This document shows positions 6,289-34,000 of a DNA stretch of 42,492 nt, piece by piece. Numbering within the stretch: the stretch's first letter is position 1; every line of letters begins with the position of its first letter. The DNA lies in the NCBI GenBank assembly GCA_964412125.1, contig CAYPNR010000007.1:1-42492 (forward strand). Direction: 5' to 3'. A model generated the notes under the pieces. That model saw only the letters and a program-made list of their open reading frames with translations, had not been told where the DNA came from and did not search any database. The position numbers were made by a program, and so were the translations under genes. Source of the stretch: an uncultured Planctomycetota bacterium (GTDB taxonomy: Bacteria; Planctomycetota; SKW154).

Positions 6289-7554
6289 ATGAGTGACAGA
6301 TACGACGTAGCCGACATCTCCCTCGCAGAAGAGGGACTGAAGCGGATCACATGGGCCGATCGATTCATGCCGGTGCTCGCGCGCATCCGCGAGCGCTTCA
6401 TCGCGGAGAAGCCTCTCGACGGCGTGCGCATCGGAGCGTGCCTGCACGTGACCACCGAAACCGCCAATCTCGTGCGGACGTTGAAGGCGGGAGGCGCCGA
6501 GGTCGCGCTCTGCGCTTCCAATCCGCTCTCCACGCAGGACTACGTGGCCGCGGCCCTGGCCAAGCACTACGACGTCGGCGTGTTCGCCGTCTGCGGCGAG
6601 GAAAGCGAGCGCTACTACGACCACATCGAAAGCGTCCTCGCCACCAAACCCACCATCACGATAGACGACGGAGCGGATCTCGTCTCCACGCTGCACGAGC
6701 GCTACTCCGGGATGACCGGCGACGTGCTCGCCTCGATGGAGGAGACCACCACCGGTCTGATTCGTCTGCGGGCGATGGAGCGCGACGACGCTCTGCTGGT
6801 GCCCATCATCGCCGTCAACGACGCCGACGCCAAGCATCTGTTCGACAACCGCTACGGCACCGGTCAGTCCACCGTGGACGGCATCATCCGCGCCACCAAT
6901 CTCCTGCTGGCCGGCAGAACGGTGGTGGTCGGCGGATACGGCTGGTGCGGACGCGGTCTGGCCTCCCGCATCCGCGGCATGGGAGCGAGCGTCATCGTGA
7001 CGGAAGTGGACCCCATACGCGCGCTCGAGGCCGCGATGGACGGCTTCCGCGTAATGCCCATGTCCGAGGCGGCCGCAGAAGGCGATCTGTTCTGCACGCT
7101 CACCGGCGACAAACACGTCCTGCGACGCGAGCACTTCGAGAAGATGAAGGACGGCGCCATCGTCTGCAACTCGGGTCACTTCAACGTCGAGATCGACATT
7201 CCCGCGCTGGAGGAGGCGGCCGCCGAAGTGGAGCGCGGCGTTCGTCCCTACATAGACCGCTACATCATGCACGACGGTCGTTCCGTTTATCTGCTGGCGG
7301 AGGGGCGCCTCATCAACCTCGCCGCCGCGGAAGGACATCCGCCGTCGGTGATGGACATGTCCTTTTCCGTTCAGGCGCTCTGCGCGGAGTGGGCCGTCAA
7401 GAACGGAGGAACTCTGGCGCATCGCGTGCACAGCGTTCCGCGCGAGATAGACGAGAGCGTCGCGCGTCTCAAACTCGAGACGATGGGCGTCCGCATCGAC
7501 GATCTCACCGCCGAGCAACGCGACTATCTCTCCTCATGGCGGGAGGGCACTTAA
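6289..7554 (+). CDS. ahcY: Adenosylhomocysteinase
   Basis: ATG 6289 lies within track ORF 5992..7554. Blocks: [27 protein letters not shown] (NAD-binding), [17 protein letters not shown]. It starts 20 nt after metK. Confidence 0.97.
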
Positions 7555-7586
7555 CGTCGATTTCCGACGGTCGAGTCGGAGAGGAG

Positions 7587-8405
7587 ATGAGAGTCCGAGC
7601 GAGTGGACGAGAGTCGTTTTGCGCGCCGCTGTGGACCGCCGCGCGCCTGCTGGCGGAGGTCGGCCTCGTACTGGTCACGCGTCCGACCCGCTCACGCGCC
7701 GACGTCTTCTGCGCGGGCTTCGGCCACGCCGCGCCGCGGCCGTCCGCCGGAACGCTGATCGCGGCGCCGACCGACGAGGCGGCGGCCGCCGCGAAAGCGT
7801 CGGGCCGCGGCGACGTCCTCCGCGTCGACTACGGGCTGGACGACTTCGTCGACGCCGACTGCGACTCATACGAGTTTCTTCTGGAAAGCGACGCGCCTTA
7901 TCTGTTCTGCGCCTGCGAGATGAGCGGCCGCACGCCCATCGCGGCGCTCTGCGGCGCGCTCACCTGGGCGCAGAAGTGCCGCAGCGCGCCGCCCCTTGCG
8001 CTCCTCGCGCTCTGGGGCGTCGAGGAACGCGCCTATCAGGCGTTCCTGCACACAGCCGAAGGCTTCGGCCTCACCGAGCGGCTCCAGGTGGTCGAGGTCG
8101 CCGGCGGCGAAGAACTGGGCGCGCTGGCGGGACGCGCGCGTTGCGCCCTCTCGGTCCTCTCAGAACACGAGTGCGGTTACGTCGCGCTCGGCTCGGCGGC
8201 CGCGGGCGTTCCCACAGTGGTCCTCGGAGGCGGCGCGCATCTGGCCGACCACGTCGTGCTCGTGGAGGAGCCGGCCCAGGTCGCCGAGGCTCTCGAATCC
8301 GCACTCGAGCAGCGCGACGCCCTGGCGAGAGCCGCAGAGCCTCTCAGGTCGCGTCGATGGAAGACGTTTCTGGAAGCGGTGCTGTCGTTTGCGCGCCGCG
8401 GATGA
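7587..8405 (+). CDS. Short glycosyltransferase-like protein (GT1/GT4 C-terminal-domain-like, degenerate)
   Basis: ATG 7587 (GGAGAGGAG upstream) lies within track ORF 6351..8405. The C-terminal block LSVLSEHECGYVALGSAAAGVPTVVLGG resembles the PS..E.FG...lEAmAaGvPVV motif of GT-B enzymes. At 272 aa there is no full N-terminal Rossmann domain. Confidence 0.5.
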   Translation: MRVRASGRESFCAPLWTAARLLAEVGLVLVTRPTRSRADVFCAGFGHAAPRPSAGTLIAAPTDEAAAAAKASGRGDVLRVDYGLDDFVDADCDSYEFLLESDAPYLFCACEMSGRTPIAALCGALTWAQKCRSAPPLALLALWGVEERAYQAFLHTAEGFGLTERLQVVEVAGGEELGALAGRARCALSVLSEHECGYVALGSAAAGVPTVVLGGGAHLADHVVLVEEPAQVAEALESALEQRDALARAAEPLRSRRWKTFLEAVLSFARRG

Positions 8406-16528: not shown

Positions 16529-17746
16529 TCAGCGCGGCCTTTTCCGCGCCGCGTCGTAGGCGTTCCGCAGCAGCGGACCGAACACCTTCTCGACCGCCTC
16601 CGACGGCCAGCCCTTCTCCAGGGCCGACAGGCCCAGCACCACCGCGTCCATTCGTCCCTGTTCGGTCCAGCCCCGGAGGACCGTCATCGGCGAGAAGCCG
16701 AGCCGCTCGACGCGGGCCGGCTCCGCCTCCCACAGCCGCAGGAGGGAGAGGAAAGCGTAAGCGGCGAGGAACGGATCGCGCACGACGGCGCGCGCGGCCG
16801 CGTCCGTCAGCGCCCGCACCGTCGCGTCGCTTACGCCCAAGCGTCGCACGGCCCAGACGCAGGCGAAGCGCATCGCCCGCACCGGCAGTTCCACCGGCCC
16901 GGCGCCTTCGGGCGCCTGCGGCACTTCGTCCATCACGCGGGCGAACAACGCCAGCATCTCCGCGCGGCGTTCGTCCAGTGCGCCGCCGACGGCGAGCGCG
17001 ACGGCCGCCTTGGTCCGCATCGCGTCGCGCGGGTCCATCGAGCCGCCCTTCTCCGGCCGATGCGGCCGGCGCAGGTCCGCCTCCGTCAGGAGCGCGCCGA
17101 GGCATTCGACCACCTCGTCCCGATCGAGACCGCAGGCGGCGGCGATGGTCTTCGGACTCCACAGCGGCCGCGCCTCCTCGCGCGGCGCGGAGGTGTAATA
17201 GTTTTCAAGGGCGCCGAGGAGCAACGAATCCCATCGACACAAAGCCGGCGGAGCCTCGCTGGTCACGTCGAGTGTGGGCGGCGAGCCGAAAAGCGGCAGC
17301 GCCTCCAAAAAGACCTGCACGCGCAGCCTTTTCGGCACGCGCCGGAGAGGCGTCGGATCGAACGCGCCGCGTCCGCCGCCGGTCGCGGCCGCCGCGAGCC
17401 ATCGACAGAAGTCGTCCTGGGCGACGAGCGCGTCGAGCAGCGGTTTCGGAGCCGCCTCCAGAAGCGCCGGCACACGTCTTCTGCCGACCCACCGCGCGAC
17501 GATGAACGGCGCCGCGTCGGACGGCGAGAGCACGTCGAGCGCGCGCGCGCGCACGAGCACGTCCAGCATGGTGTGTCGCCGCAGCGTTCCCGCGCGCGTC
17601 CACATCCCGCGGACCGCCTCCGGTCGCTCGCGCACCATACGCAGGAGTTGTTTTTCCATGGCCGCCCAGGGATCGTCGCCCGCTCCGCCTTCTCCGCAGC
17701 CGACCGTCAGCAAAAGCGCCGCCGCGACAGGTATCCATTTCGACAT
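16529..17746 (-). CDS. Hypothetical lipoprotein, alpha-helical/HEAT-like
   Basis: ATG 17746 lies within track ORF 16529..18049, giving MSKWIPVAAALLLTVGC (lipobox LTVGC). Amino-acid composition is balanced compared with the overlapping Arg-rich shadow ORFs. I recognised no family. Confidence 0.6.
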   Translation of the reverse strand: MSKWIPVAAALLLTVGCGEGGAGDDPWAAMEKQLLRMVRERPEAVRGMWTRAGTLRRHTMLDVLVRARALDVLSPSDAAPFIVARWVGRRRVPALLEAAPKPLLDALVAQDDFCRWLAAAATGGGRGAFDPTPLRRVPKRLRVQVFLEALPLFGSPPTLDVTSEAPPALCRWDSLLLGALENYYTSAPREEARPLWSPKTIAAACGLDRDEVVECLGALLTEADLRRPHRPEKGGSMDPRDAMRTKAAVALAVGGALDERRAEMLALFARVMDEVPQAPEGAGPVELPVRAMRFACVWAVRRLGVSDATVRALTDAAARAVVRDPFLAAYAFLSLLRLWEAEPARVERLGFSPMTVLRGWTEQGRMDAVVLGLSALEKGWPSEAVEKVFGPLLRNAYDAARKRPR

Positions 17747-17876: not shown

Positions 17877-18497
17877 GTGAGACACGGACTTTTCGGCGGC
17901 AGTTTCGATCCGCCGCACGTCGGACACATCGAGACGGCGCGCCGCGCGCGCGCGGCGTTCGACCTGCGGCGCGTGACGTTCGTCGTGGCCGCGTGGCCGC
18001 CGCACAAGGGCGCGGAGCGTCGCGCGTCGTTCGCGCACCGCGCCGCCATGACACGCCTGGCCGTCTCCGACCTGTCCTGGGCGGAGGTCGACGAGAGCGA
18101 GGCGGAAAGAGAAGGTCCCTCCTACACGATCCACACGCTGCAGGACTGGCGTCGGCGGGCGCCCGAGGACGAATTGTTCTTCATAATCGGCAGCGACTCG
18201 CTGGCGGAGTTGCCGTACTGGCACAGGATTTCGGAAGCGCTGGAGGCGGCGCGTTTCGTGACGGTGGCGCGGGACGGCTTCGACGAGACGATCTTCGAGC
18301 GTCTCGCGGCGGCGCTGGGAGAGAAGGCGGTCGAACGCATGAGACGGGACACGATTCGACTGGAGCCCGTCCGCGTCTCCAGCACCGAGGTGCGTCGGCG
18401 GATAGCCGCCGGCGAGCCCTGGAGCGAACTGGTGCCGCCGTGCGTCGCGCGTTACGTGCGCGATCACAACCTTTATGCTACGCGAAGGCCGTCCTGA
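17877..18497 (+). CDS. nadD: Nicotinate-nucleotide adenylyltransferase
   Basis: GLFGGSFDPPHVGH ((H/T)xGH motif), PPHK, SSTEVRRRI. GTG start. Confidence 0.9.
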   Translation: MRHGLFGGSFDPPHVGHIETARRARAAFDLRRVTFVVAAWPPHKGAERRASFAHRAAMTRLAVSDLSWAEVDESEAEREGPSYTIHTLQDWRRRAPEDELFFIIGSDSLAELPYWHRISEALEAARFVTVARDGFDETIFERLAAALGEKAVERMRRDTIRLEPVRVSSTEVRRRIAAGEPWSELVPPCVARYVRDHNLYATRRPS

Positions 18498-18545
18498 GAC
18501 GTCAATATTAACGGGGGAGAGCGTCCGTCGCCTGGGAGCGTGCTC

Positions 18546-19040
18546 ATGCGGGAGCGAGAAGGCTTCACGTTGCTGGAGTTGATGCTGGCGCTGGTACTTC
18601 TCGGCGTCGCGGCGCTGGGCATAGTCGATCTGCTTTCGGTGACCGAGTCGCAGGGGCACGCTCTGCTCAACCGCGAAGCGGCGCTGCTCATCTGCCGCGA
18701 GCGGATAGAGCAACTCCAGAACGTGAGGGGGCTCGGCGAGGGAACCGGCTCCAATCCGGACGGCCCGTTTCTGCCGGCGTTCGACAAAGTCTGCGTGGAG
18801 CGGTTCGGCTCGCTGTGGCTGACCGAGAGCGACTACTACGCGGCCTCCGACGGCACGGCTCCCTCCCGCAGCGCGCTCGAGCCGGCCCGTCGCGTGGACG
18901 TGGTTACGCAGTTGAGATGGGTGGACGACCCGGCGGGGGGAGGCGTTCAGGACTATTTACTGGCCACGGTGACGGTGGTCTGGCGCGAGCGCGGCCGCAG
19001 GAACACGGTTTCCATATCGCGTTACGTGGCGTACAGGTAG
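18546..19040 (+). CDS. Prepilin-type N-terminal cleavage/methylation protein (small minor pseudopilin, GspI/H-like)
   Basis: MREREG|FTLLELMLALVLLGVAALG is a canonical class III signal: Gly-1, Phe+1 and Glu+5. ATG 18546 has GGGAG 8 nt upstream; the track start is GTG 18540. About 164 aa. Confidence 0.8.
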   Translation: MREREGFTLLELMLALVLLGVAALGIVDLLSVTESQGHALLNREAALLICRERIEQLQNVRGLGEGTGSNPDGPFLPAFDKVCVERFGSLWLTESDYYAASDGTAPSRSALEPARRVDVVTQLRWVDDPAGGGVQDYLLATVTVVWRERGRRNTVSISRYVAYR

Positions 19041-19049
19041 GGGGACGGG

Positions 19050-21350
19050 ATGCGCGGAACGACGCTTTTGGAGATACTTTTGGCGCTGGCGATAGCGGGA
19101 GCGGTCGGCGCGGGCATAGTGGCGGTGTGGTCGGTGTCGCTGTCGGTGAGCGAGCGGACCGACGCGGAGACCGCGCTGAGAAGCGACATGGCGGCGGCGC
19201 TCGAGCGAATGGCCGCCGATCTGCGCTGCTGCAGTCGACTGGTCGAGGCGTCCGCCGACGCGATCACCGTGACGCGACGCGAAGGCGTGGTGATCGGCAC
19301 CGAAGACGGCGTCCATCTTCTCAGCGACGGCGCTTCTTCATGGCGACGCATAAACGGTACGCCGCCGAACGACATTCCGGCCGGCGCGGCGATTCCGGCG
19401 CTGCTGTCGGAGGACGAAGGCTCAATTTTCGCGGGCGGCGCCGACGGCAACGTCTATCTCAGCACGGACCTCGGCAACACATGGCGCGCGACGGCGGTCG
19501 CCGGCGGTCCCATCGTCGCCGTCGCGCGCGCGCCCGACCGCACGCTCTACGCCCTCTGTCGTCAGCCTCCCGCGCTGTTCCGCTCCGACGACGACGGCGC
19601 GACATGGACGCCCTGCGCCGCTTTTCCGGATCCGCCCCCCGTCGCGAACGCGCTCTCGGTGCGTCCCGACGGCCGCGTCCTGGTCGGCACCGGCTGGACC
19701 GGCGCCGTCAACATGTTCGTCAGCGACGACCGCGGCGCTTCCTGGCGGACCGCCGGCGTCTTCTATCTGCCGCCGGACCGGTTCGCCTACCGCAGACGGA
19801 TACGCATCCGTAACAGAACCAACACCAATCTCACCGACTATCAGGTGCGTATCGAGGTGAAACACGAACCCGGCAAGATGCGCGCCGACTACGGCGACGT
19901 GCGCTTCAAGGCCGGACCGAATCCGTCCTCGGCGGACCTCTCCTACTGGATGGAGGACGCGGGCGTCGACAGGGCCGTTTTCTGGGTGAAAGTGCCGAGC
20001 ATCCCCCGCCGCCGAACGATAAGTATATGGATGTTTTACGGCAATCCGAGTCTGACCACCACCTCCGACATCAACGCGACCATGGAGCCGCAGTACATAA
20101 GGTACGACGGGCTGGGCTCCTGGGTGAACGAGGCCTGGAGCGAGCCGACTCTCACCGGCGGCGGTCAGTGGGTGGACCTGCAGTTCACTTTTCCGTACTG
20201 GCGGGAGCCCAAGAGTCGCGCGTATCTCTGCTTCTACGGCTATCTGCTGTTCGACCCCACCGCCGGAGTGGTGGACTCCAGCAACAGCGCCGACGAGTTC
20301 TACTCGCGCTGCATGGCGGCCGTGTTCTGGGACGACGCTCAGATAGGCGCCAGCGGCGACGGCGCCTATTTCGCCTCCTATCAGGACCGCGCTTTGTTCG
20401 AGTGGCGGCTCAGCAGAGTGATCTTCGGCCGTCGGGCCTGCACGGCGCAGGTCCAGGCCGAGATATGGCGCAACGGCGACCTTCGAATATCCACAAGACG
20501 CATCCGCGAGCGCTGGATACGATGGTCGCCGACTCTGGGCGTCTCACGCGGCGACGGCTCCGATTTCGATCTTCTGTACAACAACAGCACGCCGCCGCAG
20601 AACAGATCCTGGCTCTACGCCGTCCGCAAGATCGTCGACCCGGCGCCCACCGTCACCATAGACAACGAACAGGGCATGGGACCGGCTGTGACGGTACTGT
20701 CGCTGTACTGCACCGAAGGCGGACTGTCGATCGCCGGCACCGACCAGACCGGATACGTTTTCACCTCCGGCGACGGTCTGTTGTGGACGAGGACGACCGG
20801 CACCTTCGCCGCGACGGAAGCGACCGCGGTCTTCGCCGACGATCACGGACTGCTGCTGGCGGGAGCCGTGCCCAACACCGTTCTCTGGCGCTCGACCGAC
20901 GGCGGCGCCAACTGGAACGCCCTGCAGCAGATTCCGTCTTCGCAACGCATCAACGCCCTCGCGCCGGATCCGCTCGCCGGACTCTACGCCGCCTGTCAGA
21001 CGGCCGGCGCGACGCTCTTCACGCCGCTGGCGGGCTCGGTAATGAGTCCGCTGCCCGGCTCCGGTCTGAATCGGCATTTCGCGGTCGGCGTCGCTTACTC
21101 CCGCGTCCGTTTTCATCTCGACGCCGTCGACGGCTTCATGCGTACCGATCCCTATCGTTCGCTTCCGCTCGGCGGAAAACTGCTCTCGTCTTTGGCGATC
21201 ACCTACTTCGACGGCACCTTCAATCCGCTCTCGCCGGCCGACCAGAACGAACGCGACGCGGTCCGCTCGGTCACCGTCGAGGCGACGCTCGTCAAGGACG
21301 GCCACAGCGCCGTTCTCAGGACGTCCAACGCGCTGAGGGGACCGCGATGA
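19050..21350 (+). CDS. Giant pseudopilin-like protein: GspJ-like N- and C-terminal parts enclosing BNR/Asp-box repeats, a DUF2341 domain and a NIDO-like domain
   Basis: The N-terminus is MRG|TTLLEILLALAIAGAVG, followed by ALERMAADLR (GspJ-like). Asp-boxes: STDLGNTW, SDDDGATW, SDDRGASW, STDGGANW, plus degenerate SDGASSW and SGDGLLW. The DUF2341-like block is YRRRIRIRN..LTDYQVRI..YGDVRF..LSYWME..AVFWVKVPSIP..IWMFYGNPS. The C-terminus DAVRSVTVEATLVKDGHSAVLRTS is pseudopilin-like. Confidence 0.8.
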   Translation: MRGTTLLEILLALAIAGAVGAGIVAVWSVSLSVSERTDAETALRSDMAAALERMAADLRCCSRLVEASADAITVTRREGVVIGTEDGVHLLSDGASSWRRINGTPPNDIPAGAAIPALLSEDEGSIFAGGADGNVYLSTDLGNTWRATAVAGGPIVAVARAPDRTLYALCRQPPALFRSDDDGATWTPCAAFPDPPPVANALSVRPDGRVLVGTGWTGAVNMFVSDDRGASWRTAGVFYLPPDRFAYRRRIRIRNRTNTNLTDYQVRIEVKHEPGKMRADYGDVRFKAGPNPSSADLSYWMEDAGVDRAVFWVKVPSIPRRRTISIWMFYGNPSLTTTSDINATMEPQYIRYDGLGSWVNEAWSEPTLTGGGQWVDLQFTFPYWREPKSRAYLCFYGYLLFDPTAGVVDSSNSADEFYSRCMAAVFWDDAQIGASGDGAYFASYQDRALFEWRLSRVIFGRRACTAQVQAEIWRNGDLRISTRRIRERWIRWSPTLGVSRGDGSDFDLLYNNSTPPQNRSWLYAVRKIVDPAPTVTIDNEQGMGPAVTVLSLYCTEGGLSIAGTDQTGYVFTSGDGLLWTRTTGTFAATEATAVFADDHGLLLAGAVPNTVLWRSTDGGANWNALQQIPSSQRINALAPDPLAGLYAACQTAGATLFTPLAGSVMSPLPGSGLNRHFAVGVAYSRVRFHLDAVDGFMRTDPYRSLPLGGKLLSSLAITYFDGTFNPLSPADQNERDAVRSVTVEATLVKDGHSAVLRTSNALRGPR

Positions 21351-22657
21351 AGACGGGTTCGGCTCTGCTGCTGACGTTGCTGTTCATAACCGCCGTCGCG
21401 CTCATGGTCGGAGGACTGGCGAGCCGCGTGGTGGTCGGCGGTCGCGCCATCGTCGCTCAAACCGATCGCGCCGCCGCGCTCGCGACAGCCTACGCCGCCG
21501 CGACCCGCACGCGCTTCCGCCTCTCGCTCTCCGCCGACTGGGCCGCTTCGCCGCCGGACGCCCTCTTCACCGACGAGCCGTTTCCGGCCGACGGCCTCTA
21601 TACCGTCACGCTGGCCGAGCGCACCCGCGACGCGGTGACCGCCGTGATAGACGCGCGCTGGCGCGCCTCACGCGTGCTCGCGCGCGCCCGTATCCGGCGG
21701 AACACCGACTGGTGGGACTTCAACTGGACGCGGAGAAGACCCATCATCATAACCAACTCGTCCTCACAGGACCTGGTGGACTATCAGGTGCGGATCGTGG
21801 TGCCGCGTCATCAGGGGATGCGCGCCGACTACGGCGATATGCGTTTCGTGGCCGGCGGCTCGACGCTCCCCTACTGGGTGGAGTACTCCGACGCGAACTC
21901 GGCCGTCGTCTGGGTGCGCGTTCCGGGAATTCCCGCCAACTCGACCGCCACCGTCTATCTCTACTACGGCAATCCGTCCGCGACCGGACAGTCGTCCTTC
22001 GCCGCGACAATGGAGCCGGTCTACAACTGCTATCCGGTCAGCATTCCGTGGACGAACCGGCCGGACAACAATCCGTACATGCGAGCGCTGCGGGAGGGAC
22101 GCACCTACACCCTGCCCTGGCGGTTTCCGTACTGGGGGCAGTTCAAGGACGAGGTCTACATCACGACTCTCGGATACCTGCTGTTTCAGCCGACGCCGTA
22201 CCAACTGCTGCGGAACAACTCGACCGACGGCATGAGCAGCCGTCAGATGGTGGCGGCGTTCTGGGACGACACGCGCGCCGACGTGGTCTTCGGCGTCTGT
22301 GAGAATCCCGGCGTCTACGTCTACCAGCAGAACGACCGTCTGTTCATAGACTGGGAGGTGGTTCACTATCTGTACTGGTGGCGACGGGTCCGCGCCTCCA
22401 TGAAGTTTCAGGTGTTTCTCTACCGCTGCGGCGACATACGACTGGTGCGCGGCGTCTACGGCGGACGTCCGTCGCCGACGCTCGGCGTCTCGCGCGGCGA
22501 CGGAACATACATAGACATCACCGGCCAGTGGAGGACGCGCACGTCGTGGCTGTTCGCGCAACGGAAATACGTGGAGCCAGAGCCGACCGCGGCGACAGGC
22601 GCCGAAGAGTACGCGGCGACCTCCGTCATAACCGACTGGACCGAGTCACATCCCTGA
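21347..22657 (+). CDS. PilX/GspK-like N-terminal anchor protein carrying a DUF2341 plus NIDO-like module
   Basis: ATG 21347 overlaps the upstream TGA (ATGA), within track ORF 20027..22657. The N-terminus MKTGSALLLTLLFITAVALMVGG is PilX_N-like. Residues from about 125 onward are paralogous to residues 246-535 of the preceding protein. Confidence 0.75.
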   Translation: MKTGSALLLTLLFITAVALMVGGLASRVVVGGRAIVAQTDRAAALATAYAAATRTRFRLSLSADWAASPPDALFTDEPFPADGLYTVTLAERTRDAVTAVIDARWRASRVLARARIRRNTDWWDFNWTRRRPIIITNSSSQDLVDYQVRIVVPRHQGMRADYGDMRFVAGGSTLPYWVEYSDANSAVVWVRVPGIPANSTATVYLYYGNPSATGQSSFAATMEPVYNCYPVSIPWTNRPDNNPYMRALREGRTYTLPWRFPYWGQFKDEVYITTLGYLLFQPTPYQLLRNNSTDGMSSRQMVAAFWDDTRADVVFGVCENPGVYVYQQNDRLFIDWEVVHYLYWWRRVRASMKFQVFLYRCGDIRLVRGVYGGRPSPTLGVSRGDGTYIDITGQWRTRTSWLFAQRKYVEPEPTAATGAEEYAATSVITDWTESHP

Positions 22658-29782: not shown

Positions 29783-30928
29783 GTGAGGCGCCTTGCGGCT
29801 TCGATCGCGCTGCTGACGCTCGTCTCCGTCTCCGGCGGGGAGAGCGGGGAACTGATCGTTCCGGAACTCGGCCCCGAGGTGGAGTTGGCGAGTTGGGACG
29901 CCGACGACCCGGAAACGGAAGGGATCATGGCCGAAGGCCTGTCGCCGGACGGCGAGATACTGGCGTATCTGGTGACCTACAAAGGCGACACCTATCTGAT
30001 GATGAAGCGACTCTGGAAGCGCGGCAGAGCCGTGCGCGTCGGCCGCCTGCGGGGCCGCTACGTCACCTCGCGCAGACTTCAGCAGGGCTTCTCGTGCGAC
30101 GGTCGTTACGCTTTCTTCTACGAGGTGCGCGTCGGTCCGAACAACAACGACGTCTGGACGCTCGGTCTGGTGGACCTGCGGAAGATGGAGCGCGTGCGGG
30201 TGCTTGTGAAAAGCGCGCTCCGGGTGACGGCGCTCTTCCATCGGAGCCGACCCGAGGCGTATCTGCTGTGGAAGCCGAACGAGAACGAAAAAGCGAGACT
30301 GCAGCGTTACGACCTGAAGACGGGCGGAACCGAAACGCTGGTGGAGAAGACGGACGCGGACGTACTGCTGCTGTCGCCCAACGGAAATCGACTCGCGCTG
30401 GTGGGGGAAGGCGGGACGAAAGCGTGTCTGTACCGCCTGCATCCGTTCAAGAAGGAATGCGAACTCGACCTGCCGGAGCCGCCGGACGGAGACGGCGACA
30501 ACGTGACGTTCATGCCCGAAGGAGCGCGGCTTCTCGCCGGCAAGGAAGGCTCGATGGTCGTGGTGGACGCCTCCGGCGCGACGGAGCCTGCGGAGATAAA
30601 GCGGCTCGTCGAGACGCAGAACCTGCGAGGGAACCTGGTGCGGATGCAGCAGGCGCCTTGCGGCATGATTCTTCTCACGTTCCGTCGCTGGTGCGTCTCC
30701 GACAGAACGTTTCTCTGGCATCCCAGGCGTCGGATGTTCGTGCCGATCGGAAAGATGTTCGACGAGCATCGGGTCATGCAGGTCTCGCGGGGATGGGCCG
30801 TGGCGTTCGACGAGCCCGGAGCGCGACTGCTGCTGCGACGCGTCAAACGCTGGCGCACCGCCACAGAAGACGAGGTAAGACGGTTCCAGGACCTGCTGAA
30901 AGAGAAAAAGCCCGAGAAGAAGCCCTGA
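29783..30928 (+). CDS. Hypothetical secreted protein, TolB/PD40-like beta-propeller repeats
   Basis: GTG start with GGAGGA upstream. The signal peptide is MRRLAASIALLTLVSVSG. Repeated blocks include LSPDGEILAY, FSCDGRYAFF and LSPNGNRLAL. The tail is Lys-rich. Confidence 0.6.
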   Translation: MRRLAASIALLTLVSVSGGESGELIVPELGPEVELASWDADDPETEGIMAEGLSPDGEILAYLVTYKGDTYLMMKRLWKRGRAVRVGRLRGRYVTSRRLQQGFSCDGRYAFFYEVRVGPNNNDVWTLGLVDLRKMERVRVLVKSALRVTALFHRSRPEAYLLWKPNENEKARLQRYDLKTGGTETLVEKTDADVLLLSPNGNRLALVGEGGTKACLYRLHPFKKECELDLPEPPDGDGDNVTFMPEGARLLAGKEGSMVVVDASGATEPAEIKRLVETQNLRGNLVRMQQAPCGMILLTFRRWCVSDRTFLWHPRRRMFVPIGKMFDEHRVMQVSRGWAVAFDEPGARLLLRRVKRWRTATEDEVRRFQDLLKEKKPEKKP

Positions 30929-33246: not shown

Positions 33247-33843
33247 TCACCGGTCGTCACCCGCTATGTCGGCTCCGAACCAGCCCAGGAGGAAGTCCAC
33301 GAACTGACCGATGCTGAAGCCCACGCGAAACTCCAGCAGCACGACCGTCGCGCCGATCTCGATGTCGTATGCGGCCATCGCGTCGCGCGGATATCCCCTG
33401 CGGCACGGCATGTCGTAGAAGGTGGCGACGTTCAGGAACAGCACGCTTTTGGCGACGTAGCCCGGCGGCGCTCTCGTGCCGCCGCCCTCGACGTCCGCCG
33501 GCAGACCGGTCTGCACCGAGTCGGTGGCCCACCAATCCGAACGCGCCCCCTCCACGAAGATCAGAATGAACGGCCAGACCGGCAGTCCGACGTGGTAGTT
33601 GTCGCCGACGTAGGCGACGCCGTGCCTGACGCCGGAGACCCGTGAAAAACTTCCTCCCGCGCCCACCGAGATCAGTTCCGTAAGAAGGACATGAGCGTCC
33701 AGGCCGACTCCGTAGCCGACCTCCGCGATGAAGCACTCGCCCAGGTCGCGCGCGCGATTGGTGAAGTACGGACCGACGGCGGCGCAGCCGCAGAAGAGCG
33801 CCAGCGCGGCGCACGCGAACGCGGGAATCGTAAGACGCTTCAT
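33247..33843 (-). CDS. Hypothetical small lipoprotein
   Basis: ATG 33843 lies within track ORF 33247..33942, giving MKRLTIPAFACAALALFCGC (lipobox LFCGC). The body is Gly/aromatic-rich and beta-strand-like. Confidence 0.6.
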   Translation of the reverse strand: MKRLTIPAFACAALALFCGCAAVGPYFTNRARDLGECFIAEVGYGVGLDAHVLLTELISVGAGGSFSRVSGVRHGVAYVGDNYHVGLPVWPFILIFVEGARSDWWATDSVQTGLPADVEGGGTRAPPGYVAKSVLFLNVATFYDMPCRRGYPRDAMAAYDIEIGATVVLLEFRVGFSIGQFVDFLLGWFGADIAGDDR

Positions 33844-34000
33844 CAGCCATCGCTCCTCAAGCGCGGAAAACGTCCATGCCCGGAACCACCGCCGGGCCGG
33901 CACGGCGGACAGAGTACCGGACGGCTGTAACCATCCTGTCACGACTCGCGAGCCGGGCGGCGCGACGACGATCGCGGCTCACGGAAGCCGCGCTTTTCTC

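Follow-up and report, generated by a model that had tools for sequence, protein, structure and literature searches.

A duplicated DUF2341–NIDO-like cassette on two adjacent putative minor pilins of an uncultured Planctomycetota bacterium

The DNA analysed here is a stretch of 42,492 nucleotides, in the following called the window, from an uncultured Planctomycetota bacterium (GTDB lineage Bacteria; Planctomycetota; SKW154; GenBank assembly GCA_964412125.1, contig CAYPNR010000007.1, positions 1 to 42,492 of the forward strand). Near its middle lie three co-directional genes with very short spacers that encode a small prepilin of 164 residues, a long protein of 766 residues, and a short protein of 436 residues. 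The long and the short protein share a module of about 300 residues, in which a DUF2341 domain is followed by a second domain that we assign to a diverged branch of the NIDO superfamily. We refer to this pair of domains as the cassette. The three genes and their parts are listed below; an arrow in a leader marks the presumed processing site, and residue numbers refer to the respective protein.

18546..19040, plus strand: small putative minor (pseudo)pilin, PilV/GspI-like, 164 residues (leader MREREG↓FTLLE; N-methylation models)
19050..21350, plus strand: long putative modular minor pilin, PilW/GspJ-like, 766 residues (open reading frame, Pfam and NCBIfam matches, orthologues)
19050..19139, plus strand: putative class III signal and hydrophobic alpha-1 of the long protein, MRG↓TTLLEILLALAIAGAVG, Glu at +5 (read from the sequence)
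19257..19769, plus strand: BNR/Asp-box blades, first segment, residues ~70–240 (Asp-boxes at 138, 179, and 225, a degenerate one near 92)
19785..20084, plus strand: DUF2341 domain of the long protein, residues 246–345 (PF10102, expectation value (E) 2e-14, 54.2 bits; aligns with the short copy)
20085..20669, plus strand: NIDO-like domain of the long protein, residues 346–540 (pairwise alignment, family profile, hhalign; no direct Pfam match)
20691..21029, plus strand: BNR/Asp-box blades, second segment, residues ~548–660 (Asp-boxes at 572 and 615; Pfam BNR at 613–623)
21030..21347, plus strand: C-terminal region of the long protein, residues ~661–766 (conserved among long orthologues, which end ...LRN)
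21347..22657, plus strand: short putative modular minor pilin, PilX/GspK-like, 436 residues, cassette C-terminal (open reading frame, orthologues)
21347..21712, plus strand: putative PilX/GspK-like pilin module of the short protein, residues 1–122, MKTG↓SALLLTLLFITAVALMV, no Glu at +5 (read from the sequence)
21713..22006, plus strand: DUF2341 domain of the short protein, residues 123–220 (PF10102, E 2.3e-17, 63.6 bits; AlphaFold2 model; Foldseek)
22007..22594, plus strand: NIDO-like domain of the short protein, residues 221–416 (PF06119 at E 0.067; family evidence; RemA match; AlphaFold2 confidence ~95)

The open reading frame of the small protein extends mechanically from a GTG at 18540 (166 residues). 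We prefer the ATG at 18546 because the gene called in the sister strain L084, from a JGI metagenome, has 164 codons, and because this start leaves a typical short leader. The ATG of the short gene overlaps the stop codon of the long gene by 4 nucleotides. In L084 both cassette genes are intact, with 98–99% nucleotide identity and the same gene order. Orthologues of the small pilin occupy the same position in loci L001, L003, L005, L006, and L084. Long orthologues measure 770–787 residues (P0002, P0004, P0012, and the long genes of L001 and L005) and short ones 435–443 residues (P0003, P0006, P0009, P0151, P0152); an exact look-up returned no identical sequence on record for the 436-residue protein itself.

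A preceding reading of this DNA, made from the letters alone (the sequence-only reading), had proposed that the two large proteins share a duplicated module of roughly 290 residues. Pairwise alignment bears this out. With composition-based statistics, BLASTP aligned residues 248–547 of the long protein with residues 130–427 of the short protein (120 of 310 positions identical, or 39%; 22 gap positions; E = 3e-53), while no other pair of segments from the two proteins scored better than E = 2. An E value of this size under these statistics also shows that the similarity is more than compositional. Every block that had been listed occurs in both proteins and in the same order, namely DYQVRI, MRADYGD(V/M)RF, YW.E, WV(K/R)VP.IP, YGNPS, and ATMEP, followed by FPYW, GYLLF, FWDD, SPTLGVSRGDG, and SWL..RK.V.P.PT. 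The ranges proposed for the two copies (19785–20655 and 21719–22582) fit the module to within about 15 codons; the limits that we set are 19785–20669 and 21713–22594.

The two copies are only 53% identical at the nucleotide level. When genomes are compared, a long copy resembles the long copies of other genomes more than it does the short copy next to it, and the short copies likewise group among themselves. On these two grounds we rejected the idea that the module was duplicated, or homogenised by gene conversion, recently in this genome. The grouping by type also implies that the duplication predates the lineages compared, with L003 as the exception. The ratios of nonsynonymous to synonymous substitution rates relative to L084 are 0.26 and 0.33 for the two cassette genes, based on few substitutions, compared to 0.06 for ileS. 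The duplicated module is thus real, coding, and old, and the substitution pattern indicates that both cassettes are old paralogues kept under purifying selection. The exception is a relative from Guaymas or hydrothermal material (L003:4530-8158, also L004), in which the adjacent genes share 88% identity in their NIDO-like halves and 61% in their DUF2341 halves. For the long and the short copy of every other genome, identity in the NIDO-like half is 31–36%. Because of the difference between the two halves, the L003 pair looks like the product of a recent local gene conversion that was limited to the NIDO-like half.

The first half of the module had been assigned to DUF2341 from its motifs, and this assignment was confirmed for both proteins by PF10102, with scores of 54.2 bits (long protein, residues 280–354) and 63.6 bits (short protein, residues 161–223) against a gathering score of 23.4 bits. 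The domain also occurs as a tandem repeat. An unclassified bacterial metagenome-assembled genome contains a single open frame of about 2350 residues with five DUF2341 repeats and no NIDO-like domain (L082:3710-10770).

Assignment of the second half was less direct. The sequence-only reading had noted a motif order reminiscent of NIDO domains and had suggested hmmscan with PF06119 (gathering score 25 bits, model length 186) as a check. This check did not succeed on the two proteins themselves. The short protein matched model positions 2–43 at E = 0.067 with 13.6 bits, below the cut-off, and the long protein gave no PF06119 match. When the second half of the short protein served as the query of a word-indexed homologue search, nothing was returned at E = 0.001 or better; the same type of search with an alignment of the cassette returned 9 proteins only and missed sequences contained in the query. 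By comparison, exhaustive profile searching of 1.84 billion representative proteins with an alignment of the two copies identified 723 proteins at E = 1e-3 or better, 117 of them at 1e-10 or better. From these matches we compiled 46 domain segments, which together with the two window copies make up a family alignment of 48. When scanned singly, 37 of these 48 segments matched PF06119 and no other family, the best at E = 4.9e-10 and several above 25 bits. These matches always span just model positions 2 to ~58 of 186.

For comparison with animal NIDO domains, we probed the database with the N-terminal region of nidogen-1 and aligned eight of the matches. The matches included Nidogen-1 of Myotis brandtii, and nearly all that covered the full domain carried PF06119. 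Profile–profile comparison by hhalign connected the prokaryotic family with this animal set at a probability of 97.7% (E = 2.2e-12) over 110 aligned columns, which run from the DD / FPFYG block through (S/T)NG and APFWDD.(R/D)T to the tryptophan strand and FQ.vL. Because the two window copies alone gave no match to animal NIDO in the same comparison, the assignment rests on the family to which they belong. The family matches, the profile–profile alignment, and the presence of the proposed motif order together support the earlier suggestion of a NIDO-like second half, and the sequence comparisons support its description as a separable domain of about 190 residues that forms a diverged prokaryotic member of the NIDO superfamily.

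We also considered that DUF2341 might be a larger domain, with the second half as no more than its C-terminal part. This possibility was rejected because each domain is widespread without the other, which shows that the two are separable. Among the best 150 of the 723 NIDO-like matches, 126 lack DUF2341, many of them giant proteins with two to six NIDO-like copies, and of 99 DUF2341 reading frames in the fetched loci, 88 lack a NIDO-like domain and 11 contain one. Among solved entries, the family profile produced a single sequence match, to the N-terminal domain of RemA (PDB chain 8gl6_D, residues 46–211; E = 2.5e-16). Foldseek did not return this chain, so the RemA domain is probably not modelled in 8gl6. 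No solved NIDO structure was found in the PDB either by sequence search or by Foldseek.

A structure of the cassette was predicted with AlphaFold2. The 436-residue protein folded from its single sequence gave an unusable model (predicted local distance difference test score (pLDDT) 39). The 300-residue cassette of the short protein, supported by an alignment of 24 sequences, was predicted with a pLDDT of 93.9 and a predicted template modelling score of 0.91. In this model the DUF2341 part consists of seven strands (pLDDT >90), and the NIDO-like part of about fourteen strands and two short helices. The high template modelling score implies that the two domains keep a fixed orientation to each other, and the cassette as modelled is one rigid two-domain unit. 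Almost all profile matches that extend into the last ~10 positions of the NIDO-like domain, the RKyV.PEP tail, come from proteins with a DUF2341 domain. This cassette-specific tail (SWLFAQRKYVEPEPT in the short protein) may thus take part in packing between the domains.

The proposed Foldseek comparison was run on the cassette model. Matches among viral models (BFVD) were of two kinds: the NIDO-like half resembles A0A6J5P7T5 (E = 6.8e-10, template modelling (TM) score 0.49, 199 columns), and the first part resembles DUF2341 proteins of archaeal viruses, one with a root-mean-square deviation (rmsd) of 2.2 Å over 97 columns. A0A6J5P7T5 is an uncharacterised protein of an uncultured tailed phage, and DUF2341 proteins occur in several archaeal viruses and in Cafeteria roenbergensis virus (BFVD A0A3Q8Q3Y8, E3T5D0, A0A1S5Y349). 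Matches in the PDB were generic. The best of them was a PL26 lyase (E = 4e-5, TM 0.23, rmsd 12 Å), and we set aside this match and that to a GH38 enzyme as clues to function in view of TM scores of 0.2–0.27 and rmsd values above 12 Å.

The prokaryotic NIDO-like family is marked by conserved polar motifs, GDD, SNG, and (F/Y)WDDLRTD, and the window copies do not retain the full set. Of 26 family columns that are conserved to at least 70%, the short copy keeps 20 and the long copy 18. Both copies lack the DD pair (84–86% conserved), the asparagine of SNG (89%), and the leucine after DD in DDLRTD (87%), and the loss of this triad explains why Pfam NIDO misses them. The same triad was lost from both paralogues of the related L001/L005 lineage, whereas it was kept in both L003 paralogues, in L006/P0012, in P0006, and in the archaeal-type proteins described below. 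Motif loss was coordinated between the two genes of a genome. This pattern suggests that the triad forms a site that became dispensable, or changed, for both domains at once in the lineage of the window.

We then turned to the proteins that carry the cassettes. The small protein matches the N-methylation models PF07963 (N_methyl; 27.7 bits, cut-off 21.2) and TIGR02532 (25.2 bits, cut-off 16.3), and a gspH model below its cut-off. The long protein starts with MRG↓TTLLE, and its orthologues show canonical signals such as G↓FTLIE, A↓FTLLE, and G↓FSLLE. A profile of the N- and C-terminal pilin parts of the long family matched alpha-1 of solved pilins, geopilin, TcpA, and GspG among them, with E values from 6.5e-4 to 3e-3. 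The short protein starts with MKTG↓SALLLTLL and lacks Glu at +5, as PilX and GspK do. PF14341 (PilX_N) is on record, marked as weak, for two short orthologues only (P0009 and P0151). The N-terminal signals, N_methyl in the small protein, PilX_N in the orthologues, and the alpha-1 profile matches support the earlier view that the cassettes are carried by pseudopilin-like proteins.

Between its pilin-like helix and its cassette the long protein contains BNR/Asp-box blades, and similar blades follow the cassette. The first segment matched Sortilin-Vps10, BNR_2, and BNR, all below their cut-offs, and NF045728 (F510_1955 BNR family) at E = 2.9e-15 with 56.2 bits, far below the cut-off of 175. The two segments would together form one propeller that is interrupted by the cassette. 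A PilY1-type propeller (PF05567 / IPR008707) gave no match at E up to 1. By analogy to the architecture of GspJ and PilW, the C-terminal region is probably the beta-sheet half of the pilin fold, so that the inferred order along the long protein is pilin helix, first propeller part, cassette, second propeller part, and C-terminal pilin sheet. Both large proteins therefore combine a pilin-like N-terminus with DUF2341 and NIDO-like domains, which by architecture alone corresponds to the definition of modular pilins (PMC8179133); the long protein additionally carries the BNR repeats.

The three pilin genes lie directly after nadD, the gene for nicotinate-nucleotide adenylyltransferase, in every lineage examined, with a spacer of ~15–50 nucleotides (window 17877–22657). 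The order nadD, small pilin, long gene, short gene is kept in L084, L001/L002, L003/L004, and L005, while the outer flanking genes differ. A scan for promoters and terminators detected no such signal between nadD and the pilin genes. We see no apparent reason for this tie to a housekeeping gene. Related loci were searched with a cassette alignment of 7 sequences. The closest named genomes are metagenome-assembled genomes of uncultured Planctomycetota (L005, L006), and metagenomes from hydrothermal vents and sediments contain the locus. Neighbouring genes for LptF/G and LpxK point to a diderm envelope.

The cassette recurs outside this lineage. Among the best 150 of the 723 NIDO-like matches, 24 have DUF2341 directly upstream of the NIDO-like domain, and about 21 of these 24 proteins begin with a class III signal of bacterial or archaeal type when the N-termini are read by eye. 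This result answers the suggestion that the module be sought on other prepilin-signal proteins. Many of the N-termini are of archaeal type (for example RG↓VSNVIVV..., RG↓IGTLIAI..., and KG↓VSVLVGF...), some of bacterial type. A regular expression for class III signals, which matched 18 of the 24 proteins with DUF2341 and 19 of the 126 without, could not separate them from Sec signals, and the count consequently relies on reading of the N-termini and on gene context. Proteins with archaeal-type class III signals and the cassette include P0005, P0010, and P0147. P0010 is a protein of 611 residues with a class III signal and a DUF2341–NIDO cassette. Its gene directly follows those for a T2SSE ATPase, two T2SSF proteins, and a 139-residue protein in a compact type IV pilus operon of an archaeal-looking genome (L086:4226-9836, also L087), where a TackOD1 gene adjoins it. 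The gene for P0147, which is in an NCBI assembly, adjoins TackOD1 and LysW-type genes.

Taken together, these observations favor the interpretation that the three genes encode a set of minor (pseudo)pilins, of which the two modular members carry the shared DUF2341–NIDO cassette as a binding head at the tip; we assign this reading a probability of roughly 60%. The proposed mechanism would start with prepilin peptidase, which is expected to cleave all three proteins. The small pilin module of each large protein would anchor it in a type IV filament via the N-terminal hydrophobic helix. The three mature proteins may then assemble through their N-terminal modules into a filament-priming complex, presumably a heterotrimer, which by analogy to GspIJK, PilVWX-PilY1, and modular pilins would stay at the tip of the filament. 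In this position two cassettes and one propeller could be held distally as a binding head for an external ligand. Because the same cassette recurs on pilin-like proteins of other bacteria and of archaea, it is probably a binding head displayed at the tip of a surface filament. Our best guess for the ligand is a carbohydrate or a surface polymer, in view of the folds (beta-sandwich and propeller) and of the adhesins, such as RemA, in which related domains occur.

Several results weigh against this interpretation. The N_methyl model scores only 9.6 bits on the long protein and 18.6 bits on its orthologue P0002 (cut-off 21.2), and a profile of the short-protein pilin module found no solved pilin among PDB sequences. 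The equivalog models for pseudopilins score far too low: 25.0 against 44.35 for gspI (TIGR01707) on the small protein, 12.5 against 64.85 for gspJ (TIGR01711) on the long protein, and 13.3 against 130 for GspK (NF037980, E = 0.045) on the short protein. Because these models remain so far below their cut-offs, we call the trio I/J/K-like or V/W/X-like by architecture only. The 42-kb window contains no assembly ATPase, platform protein, secretin, major pilin, or prepilin peptidase. Foldseek against the PDB returned for the cassette only the generic beta-sandwich matches mentioned above, with TM scores of at most 0.27. Furthermore, if the triad is a ligand or metal site, the window copies may bind something else or may serve a structural role only. 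To our knowledge, no biochemical function has been defined by experiment for either DUF2341 or NIDO.

An alternative explanation is that the trio forms the tip of a type II secretion pseudopilus, analogous to GspI-J-K, rather than of a surface pilus. In that case the cassettes and the propeller would recognise or push secreted cargo in the periplasm or at the secretin. The gene set does resemble the I/J/K trio, with a small protein that has Glu at +5, a J-like protein whose orthologues end ...LRN, and a K-like protein without Glu at +5. The weak best NCBIfam matches are indeed gspI, gspJ, and GspK, and Planctomycetota carry many pseudopilin-like genes. However, the scores of all these models are far below the cut-offs, no gsp machinery is found nearby in the window, and PilX_N, which is on record for short orthologues, is a type IV pilus family. 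The same cassette is also found in a pilus operon of an archaeal-looking genome (with the TackOD1 neighbour), and archaea are devoid of type II secretion, while related NIDO-like domains occur on surface adhesins such as RemA. We consider a secretion pseudopilus unlikely for these reasons. Still less credence is given to the idea that the proteins are not filament subunits at all, such that the hydrophobic helix would be a membrane anchor or export signal of an envelope or surface protein, possibly a glycan-processing enzyme like a BNR sialidase or a polysaccharide lyase. The propeller segments match BNR, sortilin, and an NCBI-named glycosylhydrolase family (the E = 2.9e-15 match, below cut-off), the best Foldseek matches in the PDB are a PL26 lyase and a GH38 mannosidase (E = 4e-5), and the cassette protein P0029 has an ordinary Sec-type signal at its N-terminus. 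Yet those structural matches amount to generic beta-sandwich similarity (TM 0.2–0.27, rmsd >12 Å), and no catalytic motif was identified. The signature of Gly at –1 and Glu at +5 is conserved across orthologues, and a bona fide prepilin gene always precedes the genes.

The remaining alternative concerns the NIDO assignment rather than the filament. The resemblance could be convergent, at the level of motifs, and the second half could be a prokaryote-specific beta-sandwich that shares with NIDO only the stretch FPFYG..NG..F..PFW.D. The restriction of the Pfam matches of the family to model positions 2 to ~58 of 186 would fit this idea, as would the failure of the two window copies alone in profile–profile comparison with animal NIDO; nor was a solved NIDO structure found with which the fold could be compared. 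On the other hand, the hhalign alignment (97.7%, E = 2.2e-12) extends over 110 columns, well beyond the Pfam stretch, and includes the tryptophan strand and FQ.vL, and NIDO is the sole Pfam family matched by 37 of 48 segments. A merely motif-level resemblance is the least probable of the three alternatives, and the tip-head interpretation of the minor-pilin set is the one we retain. A bolder version of it holds that the cassette is an ancient, dedicated head of type IV filament tips in Bacteria and Archaea, that the NIDO domain of the animal extracellular matrix descends from this prokaryotic family of adhesin domains, and that triad loss records a switch of ligand. We regard this version as doubtful, if less so than the alternatives just discussed.

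Parts of this picture have precedents. Makarova, Koonin, and Albers described archaeal type IV pilus loci that encode large DUF2341 proteins, proposed that these proteins sit at the tip, and stated that DUF2341 occurs in PilY adhesins (PMC4858521). In Methanococcus maripaludis, a transposon screen for transformation defects yielded insertions in the DUF2341 gene MMJJ_08210, which lies in the epd pilus locus (PMC10133366). Raynaud et al. (2021) defined modular pilins as pilin modules onto which binding modules have been grafted; their census (Dataset S1) lists 7 proteins with the architecture IPR012902-IPR018765, a pilin motif followed by DUF2341, and 3 more with a LamG-type domain, and in Dataset S2 some PilY1 architectures contain DUF2341 (PMC8179133). 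The NIDO entry IPR003886 is absent from both datasets, and a full-text literature search for NIDO with bacteria or pilin, or for PF06119, returned animal work only. The sequence-only reading was not aware of either domain being described as pilin-borne. For NIDO we found no such description either, but DUF2341 was already tied to pili. Thus, DUF2341 on pilins and the concept of modular pilins are known, and no account turned up of the NIDO-like identity of the ~190 residues, of the cassette as a unit, of its duplication on neighbouring minor pilins, or of its insertion into a BNR propeller.

Comparison with these systems shows what is particular to the window. Like the modular pilins PilB and PilC of Streptococcus sanguinis, the two large proteins appear to consist of an N-terminal pilin module and a grafted passenger that is presumably displayed at the tip. 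Here, however, the passenger is a two-domain DUF2341–NIDO cassette, which is missing from the modular-pilin census, and two neighbouring minor pilins of unlike type each bear a copy. The copy of the long protein appears to sit inside a BNR propeller instead of forming a simple C-terminal graft. With GspI-GspJ-GspK and FimU-PilV-PilW-PilX plus PilY1, the trio shares the order of a small pilin with Glu at +5, a large J/W-like protein, and a K/X-like protein without this residue, as well as the association of a bulky beta-propeller with the tip set. In contrast to those systems, no separate PilY1 is present and the BNR/Asp-box propeller is part of the pilin itself. The window set also differs in that it comprises three pilin genes only, is linked to nadD, has no machinery genes nearby, and leaves the Gsp models unmatched at their cut-offs. 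The archaeal DUF2341 pilus proteins (arCOG03508; MMJJ_08210) are likewise large; their genes belong to type IV pilus operons, and a place at the pilus tip has been proposed for them. The papers on them are silent about a NIDO-like half, and the window proteins differ from them in being bacterial with G↓F..LE signals.

As for the second domain, NIDO of nidogen, alpha-tectorin, mucin-4, and SNED1 shows the same order of motifs, DD..FPFYG..(S/T)NG..F..APFW.D.(R/D)T..W..FQ.vL, and both the animal domains and the prokaryotic family are extracellular parts of adhesive or matrix proteins. Unlike animal NIDO, the window copies score below the cut-off of Pfam and no longer have the DD, N, and LRTD residues, and the cassette form of the prokaryotic domain adds a C-terminal tail and the fusion to DUF2341. 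RemA, a cell-surface adhesin of gliding motility in Flavobacterium johnsoniae, belongs through its residues 46–211 to the same prokaryotic NIDO-like family, but unlike the window proteins it is exported by type IX secretion and has neither a pilin module nor DUF2341.

The versatility of type IV filaments is owed largely to the contents of their tips. In the present case one conserved operon appears to set two copies of a cassette and a propeller on two different minor pilins, and the recurrence of the cassette on archaeal-type class III proteins points to a widely used tip head that has so far escaped description. The main interest lies in the extension of the NIDO superfamily to prokaryotes, in the recurrent pilin-borne cassette, and in the coordinated loss of motifs from both paralogues. 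NIDO would extend from matrix and mucin proteins of animals to a large prokaryotic family of ~700 representative clusters with a confident predicted structure. About 190 residues per protein, which are blank in current Pfam scans, can now be labelled. If animal NIDO did descend from prokaryotic adhesin domains, these proteins would provide a tractable prokaryotic model for a domain whose role in animals is undefined. If, furthermore, the joint loss of the triad in the window lineage has the proposed meaning, it would mark a ligand switch that affected both heads at once.

A few minor observations concern the rest of the window. An Rfam scan of the window returned no RNA families. Its first 2000 positions have a G+C content of 0.53, compared to ~0.65 elsewhere in the window, and a strongly negative GC skew (–0.24); this region contains no RNA family and, at 50–1540 on the minus strand, an open reading frame of 496 codons with a weak HEAT-like match only. 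Four other sizeable frames with coding-like codon bias have no Pfam match, at 6351–8402 (plus strand), 16529–17746 (minus strand), 29783–30925 (plus strand), and 33247–33939 (minus strand). The one of these four that lies between ribD and nadD, with 405 codons, is called as a gene in the sister strain L084 as well.

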